The position numbers and the translations under genes were made by a program. Below, piece after piece: positions 301 through 58,699 of a stretch of DNA of 64,000 bases. The first letter of the stretch is position 1. The number at the start of each line of letters is the position of its first letter. Below the pieces are notes generated by a model. It saw only the letters and a program-made list of their open reading frames with translations. It was not told where the DNA came from and did no database searches. Source of the DNA: Octopus vulgaris (Eukaryota); contig OX597826.1 of the NCBI GenBank assembly GCA_951406725.2, positions 15,438,001-15,502,000 of the forward strand. Direction: 5' to 3'.

Positions 301-1639
301 CTGGTATATGTGCCTAATTTCTAAGAATTGGTTAATCACTTAAAAGTCGTTACTGTTAAGTGATTAGCCAATCAGAGCATATGATGGAATAGATGTGAGA
401 GACTGATACACACACACACACACACATACACACACACATACATGTGCCTGTGTATGGGAAGACAGAAAGAGAAAGAGAGAGAGAGAGAGAGAGAGGGAGA
501 GAAAGGAAGAGAACGGATATTTTGAGAGTCAAAGAAAGTTGTTGCTTAGCCGCAGGTAAGCTCTGACCATTCTGCTTGTTTTTTTTTTCTCTTTTCTTTT
601 CATACATTGCATACTTAGGACTACATTATCCAGTGTGTCTTTCTTTTCTCTAAGATGGTAGGATGTGATCTGAGATAGATTTCCGAGCAGCCATGTAGAA
701 GTTCCATTGTAGGCCCTGTGGCGATATGATAATGCGTCTGACTCAAGTTTAAATATTGTAAAATTAGAATGAGATATAGAGAGAATCAAACTGATAAAGG
801 AGAAGAGAGAGAGAGAGAGAGTGAGAGGGGGAGGAGGAGTGAAAGGGAGTGAGAGAGATGTGGTAGGACAGACAAGTAAAGTGTATTTGTAGAAAGAGAC
901 AAAGATATGAGGAAGAATGCTCAGATATCGTAGTCATTGTGGTGAATGGGAATATATAACTGAATGTGATTCACGTAATGGCGGCTCCATAAAAATGTCA
1001 GCCATTTTACTCTTATATCAGTATTGAAATGTATAGTAGTCTCAATGTGAGCATTGCGTTTGTCATGTGAACGGCAAGAGGATCAACAGCAAGGAGAATA
1101 AAAAATTTAAGTTGGAGGAGAAGGAGGAGGAGGAGGAGAAGAAAAAGAAAAGAAGAAAAAGGATGACGTTGAGAAAAATAACGATGGCAATAACCACGAT
1201 AAAGAAAGTGAATTGATCACAACAATAGCGAGAGAAGCAGCAACAGTAGTAGCAACAACAAACAAAATATTCACTAAAAAAAAAAAAGAGAGAAAAAAAA
1301 TCAGTTGTAACCATAGAAACTCCAGCAATGACAACAAAAGTAACGATATCAACAATAATATAATTAGACAGACTAACAAAATAAATAAAAATAGCAACTT
1401 TACGAAGAGAACCAAACCGGCAGTATCAGCAGCAGTAGCAACGGCAGTAGCATTAGCAACAGACACACCATTTAGAAAAGTCAATACGAGAGTCTGGACC
1501 TGCTGGAAGTAACAATCTAATATGTCTCAAATCACGCATCATGACCTAAATATAGAAGGATATATTAGATAATGTCGACTAAAGTATATTATGTCGTAAA
1601 AAAATGGCGGAACGGAATTGGCTGGAAAATGTTTCATCA

Positions 1640-2010
1640 TTGTCGCGTGGAAGGTGTTTATAAGCCATTTAAGAAACACATAAAAACTGTTAAATTCACT
1701 TCAACATTTAAATTTAATTTGTCAAAATATTTTCGTCGCTTTGAGACCGCGACCAGTTCACTGACAAAACTCCGTACTGCATTTGTCAGTGAACAGGTCG
1801 CGGTCTCAAAGCGACGAAAATATTTTGACAAATTAAATCTAAATGTTGAAGTGAATCTAACGGCTTTTGTGTGTTTCTTAAATGGCTTATAAACACCTTC
1901 CATGCTGCAATTGTTTTCGTTCCAGTACATGATCTCAGACCAAGTCACTCGCTCTGCAAGTACATCTCCGTGATTTTTCATCATTATTCTGCGAAAAATA
2001 CAATATATAT
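1640..2010. mobile_element. Penelope-like element terminal repeat (pLTR) remnant in inverted, fold-back configuration
   Basis: Arms ~1640-1768 and ~1782-1910 are near-perfect reverse complements. The right arm runs on to ~1990 and matches a dispersed copy at 58222-58445. Each arm carries a hammerhead-like motif and the element ends near a TA run. Confidence 0.7.
1782..1832 (+). ncRNA. Minimal type-I hammerhead ribozyme-like motif, G3-C8 core variant
   Basis: tttgtca GTGAACA g gtcgc ggtctcaaa gcgac GAA AATATT T tgacaaa: 7-bp helix I, 5-bp helix II, palindromic AATATT helix III, UUU triplet, one extra G before helix II. Confidence 0.55.
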
Positions 2011-3522: not shown

Positions 3523-3881
3523 GTGGAGGCGCAATGACCCAATGGTTAGGGCAGCGGACTCGCGGTCGGAGGATTGCGGTTTCGATTCCCAGACCGGGCG
3601 TTGTGTGTGTTTATTGAGCGAAAACGCCTAAAGCTCCATGATGCTCCGGCAGTGGGTGGTGGCGACCCCTGTTGTACTCTTTCGCTACAACTTTCTCTCA
3701 CTCTTTCTTGCTGTTTCTTGTCCCCGACTTCCTACGCAACCGCTGAGCCTGGATGCGTATTCATCCATCCGTCGGTGCTCTCGATGTCGGGGGTTGACCT
3801 GCTTCTTCTTCTGCGGGTCTTACGAATAGCTAAGGACCACGTTTCGGACTTCTCCCACTGGGCGAAGACCGCTACGCTCAA
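3523..3881 (+). mobile_element. tRNA-derived SINE, family A, tail type 1
   Basis: A-box-like tgacccaatggttagg and B-box-like gtttcgattcc; 14-bp TSD cagcatcaaacagc at 3509-3522 and 3882-3895; head shared with the copies at 13194 and 22716. Confidence 0.9.
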
Positions 3882-13193: not shown

Positions 13194-13580
13194 GTGGAGG
13201 CGCAATGGCCCAGTGGTTAGGGCAGCGGACTCGCGGTCGTAGGATCGCGGTTTCGATTCCCAGACCGGGCGTTGTGAGTGTTTATTGAACGAAAACACCT
13301 AAAGCTCCACGAGGCTCCGGCAGGGGATGGTGGTGATCCCTGCTGTACTCTTTCACCACAACTTTCTCTCACTCTTTCTTCCTGTTTCTGTTGTACCTGT
13401 ATTTCAAAGGGCCGGCCTTGTCACTCTCTGTGTCACGCTGAATATCCCCGAGAACTACGTTAAGGGTACACGTGTCTGTGGAGTGCTCAGTCACTTACAC
13501 GTTAATTTCACGAGCAGGCTATTCCGTTGGTCGGATCAATCGGAACCCTCATCGTCGTAACCGACGGAGTGCTTCCATCC
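13194..13580 (+). mobile_element. tRNA-derived SINE, family A, tail type 2
   Basis: tggcccagtggttagg / gtttcgattcc boxes; TSD aggcacc(t/a)aga at 13182-13192 and 13581-13591. Confidence 0.9.
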
Positions 13581-22299: not shown

Positions 22300-23060
22300 A
22301 TCTTTTATTTTTGCTTTCTCTTACTTGTTTCAGTTATAGCATTGCGGCTATGCTGGGGCACTGCCTTGAAAAGTTTAGTCTGAAAAACGCCTCGCAGTAC
22401 TTGACTTTTTTAAAGTTTGGTACTTGTCTTTCTGTATGTATTCATAAGGGCCGCTTTCCCGGTTTCCTTGGCGTATAGGTTCCCCACATGGACGTGACGC
22501 CGGTCCGTCGCAGGTGAGCTGCAAGATGCAGGAGGAAAGAGTGAGAGAAAGTTGTGGCGAAAGAGTCAGCAGAAGTTCGCCATTACCTTCTGCCGGAGCC
22601 GTGTGGTGCTTAGGTGTTTCGCTCATAAACACACACATCAACCCGGTCTGAGGTTCGAACCCGCGATCCCTCGACCGCGAGTCCGCTGCTCTAACCACTA
22701 GGTCATGTGCCTCCACTTGTCTTTCGGGTATCTTTTGCCATTAAATTACTGATACGTAAACAATCCGACGCTGGTTATCAAGCGGGAGGGACAAACATAA
22801 ACAGAAATACACATATACGCACACACACATTCATACGCACACATACGCGCACACACACACATATACACATTTCCATGTATGCAGATAAACATGCGTATCG
22901 ATACACATACATATTGTTTAGACAAACGTGGTGTGTGCGGGGGCATTTGTCGGCCCGCAGCTGTAACAGAATAAAGTTGCCCAAAGAACCGCACAGTGTG
23001 ACTGAATCAGAAACCATGAGCTTGCAAAATGGTTCTTAATACCGCAGTCATGCTTTCGCC
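22300..23060 (-). mobile_element. Old SINE family C copy split by a family A insertion
   Basis: Family C tail at 22300-22430; the remainder resumes after 22717. Confidence 0.7.
22433..22716 (-). mobile_element. tRNA-derived SINE, family A, tail type 3 (nested)
   Basis: Head matches the 3523 and 13194 copies; TSD ttgtctttc at 22424-22432 and 22717-22725. Confidence 0.9.
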
Positions 23061-43650: not shown

Positions 43651-45478
43651 TAATGGTGTCAACTATTGCTACAAGTTCGGGAGGTGGTAAAAGTCGATTA
43701 GGACGACCCCTGTACTCAACTGGTACTTATTTTATCGACCCCGAAAGGATGAAAGATAAGGTCGATTACCGCGGAATTTGAACGCAGAACGTAAAGACGG
43801 ACGAAATGCCGCTAATCAATTTTAAAACCGCGCTTTAGGTGGAAGACATAATTACCGCTAAACAAACAATTACTATAACTGCTTCAAATTTTGACACATG
43901 GCCAGCAATGATAGAGAGGATTTATAGAATTACCTCGGTTCCACTAAGTGACTAAACCCGGAAGACCATGTAAGGCCATAATATTTGTAGGAAATTTGGA
44001 TGTTATTAATCCCGGTGATGAGAAATCTGTTGTTAATTTCGGTGAGGAGCAATCTGTTGTTCAATCACCTGATACTTCTGCTCGTCAGAGTAAGGTGTGA
44101 ATAGACCTTAGACAGTTGGCTTAATATACCTTAGGCACTTACACTTATAACGCAATTCTCGGGACGTATCATCATGATGTAATGTCAAATGATGTTACTA
44201 TTTTGAATTACACGTCCCAGATACATAATATATGCATACACACATACATTCATACGCATAGCAGGTATCCAGTCACGACTGTACTGGATTAATTTGACCT
44301 TTGATTTAAAAAAACCCCACAAATTTGACCTCGCGATGATTTGGACTTAACGAGCTGTGAGTTGGAACGAATAGAGAAAATCTTTCTTCTCTACGTTCCT
44401 AACAACTCTACCTGTTCTTGTTTTTAGCCCATTATGAACTAGTAATTATGAACCCAAACAAAAGCCAGAAACAACGTTTGCTTTATGTATTATTGTAACT
44501 GAGGACTTAAAGCTATGCAAGAACAACTTAGAAGTCACTCGCCACCAAGCATAAATCAAGCCTTCGTTAATCGTTTTAAATGCCTCTTACCCACTGGATT
44601 CTCCTGTTCTTGACCCAATGGTCTAATGGAATCGAACCTACGATCTTGTGACCATGAGCCAATTATTCTAACCACAAAGTCAACTGAGTACACTACAAGT
44701 AAGTAATCCACTGATAGATATTTAAATCCATTTGATCCCTCTCTGGTTTTGTCTTTGTGTTTATATACGTTTTACTGTTGTCGAAAAGTCGAACGTCAAC
44801 CACAAGTTTTAAAGCCATGAACATCACCCCGAAATAGTGTATCTGTGACTATATAATTTCGAATGTACTTCAAGACGGCAGGGTTTGAAAAAGATTTAGC
44901 TGCAACTTCTAGCAGGTTGAAAAACCATATAATCTGTCCCTCTTCGTTAGCTAGTTGTATATACGTCGAACAACTTTCAGCGTTTGATTAGGAATAAGAT
45001 AATGTAATGTGTCTGTGTGTTCTGCATCATTTCTTCTAGCTCGCTGGATGTCTATGTGTGCATTTATTGTCTCGGATTTGTTGCTGTTGCCTTGTTTCTA
45101 TTATAATTCGATTTATATCTGAAATGAACAATATGTATATAAATTAACTAAATACCACAATGACATTTTCTTCGACGCTCTACTAATGCTGCTAAGCTAC
45201 CGCCAGTCCAGATGAATTAAATGTACTCAACATATTCCAGCCGTGACAAGACACTTCTGTTATTCAGGAATGATAAATCGAGGAGAAGATTATCCAAAGT
45301 TTCCTTCTATTTTGAAAGAGTTGAAGGAGATTCGGCTACTTTATCTAGCACGTAAAGCGAACATCTCAAGGCTTCCCTCTGTTTTTTGTTATATTTTTAG
45401 TAATATTTTGTGTGGAAATAGACTTAATGCAGATAACAAAGGGTGACTGATGTTCAAACATTCGTGGCCACACACACA

Positions 45479-49370: not shown

Positions 49371-49752
49371 AGAGGGACAGAAATTCAAGATCAAATCTAA
49401 CTTTACTTGTGCCTCTGAAAACATAATTTATGTCATAAAATGCTCGGGCTGCCACCAAGACTACGTGGGATCCACGGGACTATCACTCAGACGTAGATGC
49501 ACACTGCATCGACAACAGATTGCATTCCCAGAATACAGAATGATACCTTTTAGTGAGCACATTGAGAAATGCGGAAAGCAACTACTACCACAATTTTTAA
49601 TCTTTCCATTTTACCAATGTGCCATCGGATCATCAACACAAATTAGACTAAACAAGGAAACATTCTTCATTGAAAAGTACAAGCCCAGACTTAACCATCC
49701 GAACATACTGATACAGAGAAATTCACACCAAGGGAAAGGAAAACATTTTTAA
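49371..49752 (+). CDS. GIY-YIG endonuclease domain of a 5'-truncated Penelope-like retroelement
   Basis: FTCASENIIYVIKCSGCHQDYVGSTGLSLRRRCTLH...FSEH...RLNKETFFIEKYKPRLN: IIY / YVG.T / R / E / LN motifs with CxxC; the frame is open and starts at a (TA)n junction. Confidence 0.9.
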
Positions 49753-49861
49753 GCGATTATCTCCCTTACACCGGAAGAAATCACTCATTACCTCCTCTTA
49801 TTTAGAACTCTCTTGAACATAAACATAACGATAACTCTATTCAGCATAAACATAACGTCGT

Positions 49862-49900
49862 AAGAAATTTGAAAAGCTAAATGCGAAACCGGTCTTTCTT
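49862..49900 (+). ncRNA. Minimal hammerhead-like motif, U3-A8 core variant
   Basis: aagaaa t TTGAAAA gc taaat gc GAA ACCGGT C tttctt; 6-bp helix I, palindromic ACCGGT, GUC triplet, 110 nt after the GIY-YIG stop. Confidence 0.6.
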
Positions 49901-50007
49901 CAAAACTATGTCATTATAAGTGGAAAAACATTTTTTTAATATTCTTCAGACATATTGACGCAAATATATATTTTTTAACATTTAAGCCTTCTGTAGTTTT
50001 TTTTTTA

Positions 50008-50459: not shown

Positions 50460-51605
50460 CACTACCGAAAACCAGTTGAAGTAAGACTTGTAGCAAAATT
50501 CTCGTGTGTGTGCGTACAGGAGAATTGTTCTTTTCTGATTTGAATTGAAGTCATTGGAAATGATAGTTAGTTTTCATGTATTCGGAACAAGAAGAAGAGG
50601 ACGACCACGTGGAGAGCGATGACTATAATCACCACACCACCACTATCAGTGACCACCAATAACAACTCTCACATCATTCCAACGAGAACTCAATGTGGTC
50701 ACTCAGATTTCAACATATGGTAGCCAAGTCTTTCTGAAATCATGGCATAGCTTCTACAAGAATAAACGGTACATAAAATAATGTAAAACCAGATACACTA
50801 TCTGAGACGAAGAGAGGTGGCCATTGCTGGAATGATTTCATTACAGACTTGATCAATTTCACGCCTGCACAGACTCTAAATAACAACAACAATATCCAAT
50901 TTATCAAATTAATGTGGAGATTCTCTACGTCGTTGCTCGACTTTCTCTATGTAACAACGAATTTCCTTTCAGAACAATACTAATTATACTATGAGCCGCT
51001 CACTACCATACCAAAAAAATTCAGCCCACAATAATAAACACAACAGCCACAAAAGCATGTAGCATCATTTAATCTGCAGCTTTCACAGTAGAAGCACCAG
51101 CATCAGCGTCAGCCGCATCAGCATCAACATCAGCAACAAGAACAACTGCTAGATCAATAATCAGTGTGTAATCGAAGTCGCTACTATTACAGACAATAAT
51201 TAGTTACTGTGGAGATGCTTGGGGTAGGAGTAATTTTGCTGATAATGATGATCGAGTTCGCTATTGTTCATAGAACGGCTGCCGTTTCTTTTGGTCAAGG
51301 CCAGAAAGTTTTTGAAAGTGCGTCTAGACTGGAACTAAACAAAAACGCCAAGACAAAACATCAGTTACATCAACACTAACGGGAATGACATTGACAAAAT
51401 TACTATCAGTAACTGAATGCGTTTTATTTATAGTGTAATTAACTTCTCTGCCTCTAGCGAGTTGGGACACTCCAACGAATCACAACGTTCATATTCTACT
51501 ACTACCCCAAGATACAAGAATATCAAATACTTTTATGGATAAACTTCAGAAAGGTCTCCACAATATCATTCCCACGTAAATATAGTCATTTTATACAATA
51601 TTTTT

Positions 51606-51606
<1 letters not shown>

Positions 51607-51681
<75 letters not shown>

Positions 51682-51711
51682 GTCTATCTATCTATGTCTA
51701 TCTATCTATCA

Positions 51712-51743
<32 letters not shown>
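51607..51743. repeat. (TATC)n microsatellite (further tracts at 52973-53045, 53415-53510, 54025-54195, 54518-54594)
   Basis: Seen directly. Confidence 0.95.
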
Positions 51744-52499
51744 CGATCTGCATCGTGGATCAAAAAGAGGCCGAGGAAGGGCGATTGGCACCGCGAGTGT
51801 CGCGTTGCTCTCAAGCAACTCTGCCGTCCCGGGTCGACCTTGAGTGACTCCAACACAACCAAAGCATTCTATAGGGGATTAGTGGAGGGGAGGTACGACG
51901 ACGAGCTCGGGGCGAACCTGGACGTCGACGAGGAGTACCTGACCCGCCTGTTCAGGACGACTTTCGGGCCAGGGCCCATGGATAACTTCCAGAGATCCCT
52001 GGCCTGGCAGTGCTACCGAGAAGCGCTACCCGTTCGGGATAAGCTCTACAGACACGGCTCGAGAAACACGGGGCCGACCTGCCCGAGATGCGGTCAGAGC
52101 GACGAAACCGTTCTGCACGCACTCGTGCAGTGTCCAACAATTTCCGACCTGTGGGCTTATGTCGAACAACTGCTGTCACGTGTGGGACGAGTCGGTTTAT
52201 CAGCTGAGTCTATCGTCAATATTGTCACGCCTCCTTCCTTCAAACGGGAAGGAAGAGCTATTTTCATCATCCTTGTGGCTATGGCGAAAGAATGTATCTG
52301 GTGGACGCGTCTGAAAGGATTGGAGACAAACACTTTCCTCTCTGGTCAATCTCTCATCAACTTCTTCAAGTACCACTTGAAAAGGAAAGTGAGAGTAGAG
52401 AGGCAAGTTTTGTCTAGTGAATGTTTTAAAAAAAGATGGGTGAATGTAGCAAGGATGGCACGTATGAATGACGAAGCCACCTTGAGCATAATCCTATGA
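51744..52499 (+). CDS. LINE ORF2 C-terminal fragment with zf-RVT (CCHC) domain
   Basis: [12 protein letters not shown]...[25 protein letters not shown]...AKECIWWTR; the frame is open from the 5' junction (51744) to the stop at 52499; CpG-rich. Confidence 0.88.
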
Positions 52500-58221: not shown

Positions 58222-58445
58222 AGATAATGAAATAATTATTACGGAGATGTACTTGCATAGCGAGTGACTTGGTTTGAGATCGTGTGCTGGAACGGAAACA
58301 ATTGTAGCGTGAAAGGTGTTTATAAGCCATTTAAGAAACACACAAAACTGTTAGATTCACTTCAACATTTAAATTTAATTTGTCAAAATATTTTCGTCGC
58401 TTTGAGACTGCGACCCGTTCACTGACAAAACTTCGTGCTGCATCT
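58222..58445 (-). mobile_element. Non-inverted copy of the Penelope-type repeat at 1640-2010
   Basis: High identity over ~200 bp; hammerhead-like motif at 58379-58429 (GTGAACG). Confidence 0.8.
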
Positions 58446-58699
58446 CGTGCCGTTGAAGTAAATATTATTTACATATATATTAAGCTGTGAAACAATTGTC
58501 ATGAAATAAGAATTTCCAACTGTAAAATAAATTTTATCACAGTATATTTCTCTTGTTATTTATAATTTTATACATCACTTATGTTTTTCTTTTGTATTGC
58601 ATTATATATTTTATGTTTTGTAGAATGATACATTGAAGAGCTTTTTTGTTCATGAGTACCACCAAATTAGCTAATCCGTAAATCGTAGCTGAAATTTTA

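Follow-up and report, generated by a model that had tools for sequence, protein, structure and literature searches.

The window, i.e., the whole 64-kb stretch of DNA analysed here, contains three copies of an abundant interspersed repeat of 150-210 bp. The copies are 90-94% alike and lie at 1639-1782 (-), 1782-1974 (+), and about 58238-58446 (-). The first two form the arms of a fold-back, and the third is a solo copy. Each of them carries the same hammerhead motif, which is most complete in the right arm. The features of the two loci are listed below.

1632..1641, plus strand: left copy of a 10-bp direct repeat, likely a target-site duplication of the whole fold-back
1639..1782, minus strand: left arm, an inverted copy with the 5' leader that stops at the shorter 3' end of the family
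1718-1768, minus strand: sister motif in the left arm, with U at position 9
1782..1974, plus strand: right arm, which does not have the 5' leader of about 15 nt and reaches the longer 3' end of the family
1782..1832, plus strand: minimal type I hammerhead motif with a G3-C8 core, A9, an extra G, and a palindromic helix III, as judged from the fold, a descriptor, and the family letters
1782-1788/1826-1832, plus strand: helix I, 7 Watson-Crick pairs
1789..1795, plus strand: core strand G3-U4-G5-A6-A7-C8-A9 (G3 at 1789, C8 at 1794, A9 at 1795), from the sequence and the family letters
1796, plus strand: extra G before helix II
1797-1801/1811-1815, plus strand: helix II, 5 Watson-Crick pairs, including G10.1-C11.1 (G1797-C1815)
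1816-1819, plus strand: G12-A15.1
1819..1824, plus strand: 6-nt palindrome AAUAUU, A15.1 to U16.1, which would pair two copies as helix III (PMC4209133)
1825, plus strand: U17
between 1825 and 1826, plus strand: cut site predicted from the motif layout
1882..1974, plus strand: start of the parent element's ORF, from its ATG through codon 31, with a private stop at codon 17 in the right arm
1976..1985, plus strand: right copy of the 10-bp direct repeat
58238..58446, minus strand: solo copy with the 5' leader and an open 31-codon frame from the ATG at 58330
58379-58429, minus strand: sister motif in the solo copy, with G at position 9

A sequence-only reading of this DNA had pointed to GTGAAC in all three copies, and it is indeed found at 1782-1832 (+), 1718-1768 (-), and 58379-58429 (-), with the reported A, U, and G, respectively, at position 9. 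The 7-bp helix I and 5-bp helix II that had been described as intact contain only Watson-Crick pairs in the plus-strand copy. The layout at 1782-1832 is that of a three-way junction with helices I and II beside the core. U4, G5, A6, A9, G12, A13, A14, A15.1-U16.1, and H17 are all present there and are the majority state in four of four public runs (see below). The core is complete in the plus-strand copy only, as A9 is missing in the other two window copies. In place of the consensus letters C3 and G8, the motif has G3 and C8, between which a Watson-Crick 3-8 pair is possible.

On folding, helices I and II form in each 51-mer (z -2.0 to -2.5). Among 3,633 locally shuffled windows, one satisfied a descriptor that specified G3-C8, A9, a helix II of at least 5 bp, a helix I of at least 7 bp, and a palindromic helix III, and three satisfied a looser version that accepted any Watson-Crick 3-8 pair. 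The three copies count as a single observation against chance because they all belong to one family. Rfam gave no match at gathering score across the whole window, and the 15 matches obtained for 1600-2100 at E<=10 include no hammerhead family. Those that resemble miRNAs score below the gathering threshold and arise from the fold-back hairpin. The motif almost certainly descends from a hammerhead.

Parts of the stretch were contained in 20 of 24 listed public runs, most of them from six organisms. Family letters were read from the contigs of 4 of the 24 runs, which cover three organisms and were aligned to 1770-2030 at 80% likeness. These were three probable DNA runs (organisms A, B, and F) and one probable RNA run (organism A), with 16,396, 10,630, 7,594, and 1,365 contigs per run. 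A run labelled insect metagenome (share 0.06) was left out. The RNA run X17 contains the repeat family, where "RNA" is a guess and the contigs show neither ends nor levels.

At 1782-1800 and 1816-1827, no alternative letter reached 3% in any of the four runs, with the contig alignment being less sensitive near 1782-1800 (lower depth and likelier clipping at the edge) because the query leaves the family there. G3, C8, A9, the extra G, G12-A15.1, the palindrome, and U17 are thus the majority state, and none of the 11 core positions has a listed variant. The suggestion that the G3-C8 swap is a family trait and not copy-specific decay therefore holds, G3 and C8 being the majority in all four runs. 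Position 9, the variability of which had been raised as a caveat, has A as its majority letter (four runs, three organisms). Six variants of at least 3% fall within the 51-mer; four retain pairing as G-U (1801, 1812, 1815, and 1828), another falls within loop II (1805), and the sixth, at 1813, disrupts a pair. At G12, no change reaches 3%, although changes at the C of the same CpG reach 2.7-7.8%. Variable positions number 0 of 11 in the core vs 21 of 99 in the rest of the repeat, which is not significant (P=0.09).

That two of the three window copies are without A9 is not alarming, since one site that differs in two of three copies is expected somewhere in the 51-mer in 13-31% of cases. A letter at 1907 that the 3% listing does not include occurs in both the 58-kb copy and the left arm, which may therefore represent a minor subfamily. 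If two random substitutions are placed on the 11 core positions, 0.6% of the outcomes hit both 3 and 8 and restore the pair. From this low chance, we infer that selection acted on the fold in the parent lineage. The swap would likely have been fixed in that lineage, under selection for the 3-8 pair, and most dispersed copies would be passengers that decay freely, as the U9 and G9 copies may illustrate. The compensatory nature of the swap implies that the fold was selected for, while copies that became inserted seem not to have been cut.

For comparison with known ribozymes, 56 representative minimal hammerheads (Cervera and de la Pena 2014, supplement figure S3 of PMC4209133) were counted by hand. 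The 3-8 pair in that figure is C3-G8 in 53 representatives, U3-A8 in two, and U3-G8 in one, and none has G3-C8. The extra nucleotide before helix II had been listed as a caveat; it is normal, occurring in 54 of the 56 representatives, but a G in this place is indeed rare (1 of 54). The description of UUU as a weak triplet was overstated, given that U17 is found in 24 of the 56 and that the oyster motif from a Penelope-like element (PLE) in PMC4209133 has both the UUU and the A15.2-U16.2 pair of the octopus motif. In that paper, the extra nucleotide, G10.1-C11.1, and the palindrome are recurring PLE traits, and the minimal hammerheads of PLEs have low activity, in dimers only, being weak even with C3-G8. 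The octopus motif resembles them in its type I topology, the extra nucleotide between 9 and 10.1, G10.1-C11.1, the short palindromic helix III, the common U17, the many solo copies, and the close inverted pairs. It differs in having G3-C8 and in having G as the extra nucleotide. The searchable supplement file of PMC4209133 holds no octopus example.

Natural variation at 3-8 is in print as U3-A8 (PMC3088659, Perreault et al. 2011; Schistosoma Cercyon PLEs, PMC4209133), which is likewise a 3-8 covariation missed by consensus descriptors. U3-A8 keeps a pyrimidine at 3 and a purine at 8 and would be reached by transitions via U3-G8, whereas G3-C8 would need two transversions via a mismatch. The partial rescue of activity by C3G/G8C, on which the sequence-only reading relied, is documented, a PLE hammerhead included (PMC11167929, PMC9901934). 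In a complete pairwise mutagenesis, no double mutant of the region other than the G:C swap showed rescue (PMC9901934). The swap also partly rescued the Anolis PLE hammerhead, which cleaved only with its protein (PMC11167929). These engineered mutants (PMC11167929, PMC9901934, PMC8495972) have the same pair as the octopus family but are laboratory constructs, whereas G3-C8 is the natural majority state of the family. In the literature searched, the G3-C8 hammerhead was found only in engineered form; Lunse et al. 2017 and part of the PMC4209133 supplement could contain a natural one. The family motifs were absent from the searched supplements of PMC8557442 and PMC13282606 (the latter without its repeat library).

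Family-specific patterns had no match in metagenome or viral contigs. Shorter patterns returned 120 plus 2 loci, with a best match of 22 bp, and were rejected as chance. When viral scans were combined with a helix filter, C3-G8 was retained in 46 of 123 and G3-C8 in 0 of 111 and 2 of 120 among the matches listed. The family-like G3-C8 pattern gave 0 of 28 and the mismatch control G3-G8 1 of 120, again among the matches listed. In these narrow scans, viral G3-C8 matches are therefore at noise level, and G3-C8 is rare in viral contigs. One of the two G3-C8 loci that passed the filter, on viral contig L217, has weak helices and stands at the level of the mismatch control.

The carrier of the motif can be described from its ends and copies. 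On the 5' side, loose contig ends converge fairly sharply about 17 nt before helix I. They form two 3' clusters, one near 1911-1917, often running into TA repeats, and one near 1968-1971, and the flanks are TA-rich. The left arm ends at the first 3' cluster, and the right arm and the solo copy end at the second. The copies are solo or inverted and do not form tandem arrays, and head-to-tail joints are rare. The summed depth is 2-5 million in the DNA runs vs 10-210 for single listed contigs, but overlapping contigs inflate this depth and it is no copy number. Each DNA run has 233-359 contigs with loose 5' ends. From two loci in 64 kb, the summed depth, and these contigs, we infer that thousands to tens of thousands of repeat copies exist.

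It had been suspected that the two fold-back arms are not independent copies. This is probably so, and the fold-back probably represents one insertion, because the 10-bp direct repeat flanks it; an exact flanking repeat of 10 bp was reached in 10 of 3,000 random boxes. The arms differ from each other at 9 of 130 sites and from the distant copy at 7 and 6 of 129, which fits either age or two different RNA templates. Template switching would generate such a fold-back. A DNA transposon (MITE) was rejected as the carrier, as the 58-kb copy is a single arm and the inverted joints vary in position. If transcribed, the fold-back at 1639-1911 would yield dsRNA of about 130 bp (about -200 kcal/mol), likely a substrate for editing or small-RNA enzymes. 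Upstream of the solo copy's leader, at 58447-58459 (-), there are 8 nt that are complementary to positions 1845-1852 of the family. They could belong to a distal portion of helix I or result from a very small inversion, and the loose-end consensus does not show them.

The repeat contains the start of an ORF. Its ATG lies 50 nt downstream of helix I, and 31 codons are open to the repeat end. This frame matches residues 1-31 of P0004, an Octopus sinensis gene model, at 84% identity (E 1.5e-7; one of one candidate), and the P0004 frame runs on beyond the 3' end of the repeat. A methyltransferase part begins at about residue 229 of this chimeric model, which is probably an annotation that fuses the element's ORF start to a methyltransferase fragment. 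The first part of P0004 carries, by eye, what we take to be PLE motifs, and it may be read as a PLE N-terminus. One stretch resembles the GxKF/Y motif named in PMC8557442, as judged by eye.

The first 223 residues of P0004 showed no informative Pfam family (two weak matches, E 0.12 and 0.19), and its N-terminus had no informative match among Atlas clusters, PDB chains, or viral contigs. With the 31 residues as the query, protein representatives gave three repetitive proteins, judged to be chance, and a search of proteins of near length gave none. An autonomous PLE partner had been proposed for the motif. A linked protein N-terminus was found (P0004 1-31), but an RT or GIY-YIG domain was not; Pfam detected no RT near the repeat copies among the 145 longest of 203 complex frames in the window. 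A GIY-YIG remnant does lie at 49.4-49.75 kb, but the DNA after it is unlike the repeat, and we therefore rejected it as the partner.

The insertion pattern also resembles that of PLEs. The pattern given for PLEs in PMC8557442 is a truncated copy inverted head to head, in which just one side bears a tail. The fold-back has an inverted 5'-truncated copy, a one-sided tail, and a target-site duplication, with a tail of about 55-60 nt here vs 30-40 bp there. The pseudo-LTR of Anolis PAc (Poseidon clade, PMC11167929) is a further likeness, having its hammerhead by the ORF start, two 3' end sites in the ORF start, and AT-rich targets. Reverse transcription of PAc begins internally, at two sites that coincide with genomic ends. 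The PAc ORF begins at stem II, whereas the octopus ATG lies 50 nt after helix I. Judged by these structural likenesses, the repeat is very probably a PLE pseudo-LTR, the parent of which would be a C-terminal-endonuclease PLE. Reverse transcription of the parent would likely begin inside the ORF, about 30 or 90 nt from its start, and extend back until about 17 nt before helix I, resulting in many short solo copies.

The joint explanation that we favour, with fair confidence, combines a full type I layout, a family-wide G3-C8 core, a likely PLE pseudo-LTR, and predicted slow cutting. Within this explanation, the motif is predicted to cut slowly after U17, probably only as a dimer or with the help of a protein, and we consider cleavage at a measurable level somewhat more likely than not. 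In hammerheads, it is established that residues 3 and 8 form a tertiary pair and that residue 8 acts by its 2'-OH as the general acid; G8C lowers the rate about 100,000-fold, and C3G restores it partly. With G3-C8, the tertiary pair would be kept, and with it the positioning of the 2'-OH of residue 8. Two copies would then pair through the palindrome and undergo slow cleavage after U17, and inserted templates would likely be those left uncut. As the chemistry would be that of an ordinary hammerhead, no new class is implied. In PMC3884650, a G3-C8 variant is said to be more active with G17 than with C17 (data not shown in that paper), and U17 may avoid a G3-C17 mispair.

Folding predictions place constraints on this activity. 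The most stable dimer fold is predicted at -30.6 kcal/mol, a pair of monomers at -24.8, and the nested active dimer at -25.4. The active dimer is thus about as stable as the monomers but 5 kcal/mol less stable than the best alternative, and it would likely require help. RNA transcribed across both arms is predicted to form a hairpin of about 130 bp, with helices I and II at probability 0. In the right arm alone, both helices are kept over 1782-1860 and lost over the full length. Including the 5' leader gives a fold whose stability does not exceed that of shuffles (z -0.2 and -0.3), and an extended helix I that uses the leader is predicted in some folds, no better than in shuffles. At 1820-1853 (+), a competing hairpin that is favoured in several 18 C folds includes the 3' strand of helix I together with the cut site; it could be an off state.

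The strongest alternative is a vestigial PLE hammerhead, in which the swap once kept some activity and no meaningful cutting is left. The motif would then spread only as part of the RT-copied stretch, or as a folded site for protein binding. Copies retain the leader upstream of the cut site, and neither a pile of 5' ends at 1826, among the loose ends listed, nor a depth step was seen there. According to PMC11167929, hammerhead-dead PAc mutants insert normally in vitro and no reads ended at the cut site. Naiads spread without canonical hammerheads. The partial nature of the rescue, the rarity of the extra G, and the core conservation short of significance point the same way. However, in three organisms the majority state preserves the palindrome and every one of the 11 core letters, and the helix variants mostly keep pairing. 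Moreover, a compensatory double transversion is unlikely without selection. On this evidence, we consider a vestigial motif unlikely, yet the most credible of the alternatives.

A real hammerhead could also reside on a SINE-like element or a non-LTR retrozyme, with no PLE pseudo-LTR and an accidental match to the start of P0004. P0004 is a single chimeric model, the 5' edge of the repeat is fairly sharp, and rare head-to-tail joints do occur. Non-LTR retrozymes (PMC7229834; bioRxiv 10.64898/2026.07.22.740005) share the short non-coding units, the type I hammerhead, and a proposed origin from PLE pseudo-LTRs. However, they form tandem arrays, mostly with canonical hammerheads, whereas the octopus copies are solo or inverted and keep an ORF start. 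A SINE is opposed by the solo copy, in which simple patterns detected no Pol III A or B box, and by T4 runs inside the repeat. The P0004 frame, furthermore, continues past the repeat without a methyltransferase match before about residue 229. A carrier other than a PLE is therefore improbable. Chance likeness, in which an ordinary repeat has hairpins that resemble a hammerhead by accident, is very improbable: rare accidental matches are expected when very many windows are scanned, Rfam recognised no hammerhead, and the leader-containing fold is like shuffles, but the descriptor count in shuffled windows, the Watson-Crick pairing throughout the helices, and a position just before an ORF start, as in PLE hammerheads, all argue against it.

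The joint explanation can be extended to the history of the family. An octopus PLE lineage may have crossed the two-transversion valley to a working G3-C8/U17 core and amplified it to tens of thousands of copies, a scenario that we advance tentatively and at less than even confidence. If true, the family would be among the most abundant animal ribozyme families and invisible to CUGANGA descriptors. A family-wide natural G3-C8 core would show that the pair, and not its letters, is selected in vivo. Descriptor searches would in that case have missed whole hammerhead families, and "hammerhead-free" PLE clades may need to be re-checked. The family would also offer a handle on whether PLE hammerheads contribute to transposition.

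The window contains several other elements. A weak U3-A8 descriptor match at 44881-44935 (+), with a non-palindromic helix III and a 4-bp helix I, is likely chance. At 51543-52496 (+), a zf-RVT frame (E 4e-8) represents the 3' end of a LINE. No tRNA genes were found in the 64 kb. Another repeat, with three copies that are 81-91% alike (3523-3718, 13194-13389, and 22529-22718), is probably a SINE, its 5' part being tRNA-like by eye. The 3' remnant of a Neptune-like PLE lies at 49375-49950 (+), after a TA repeat, and includes the above GIY-YIG frame (Pfam E 0.003). Its database relatives show 97% and 72-73% identity, and one of them has an RT domain and a cysteine linker. About 110 nt after the stop of the GIY-YIG frame, at 49862-49900 (+), there is a second, unrelated hammerhead-like motif. 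It has a U3-A8-like core with one surplus letter, a 2-bp helix II, a 6-nt palindrome, C17, and a 6-bp helix I, and is possibly decayed.
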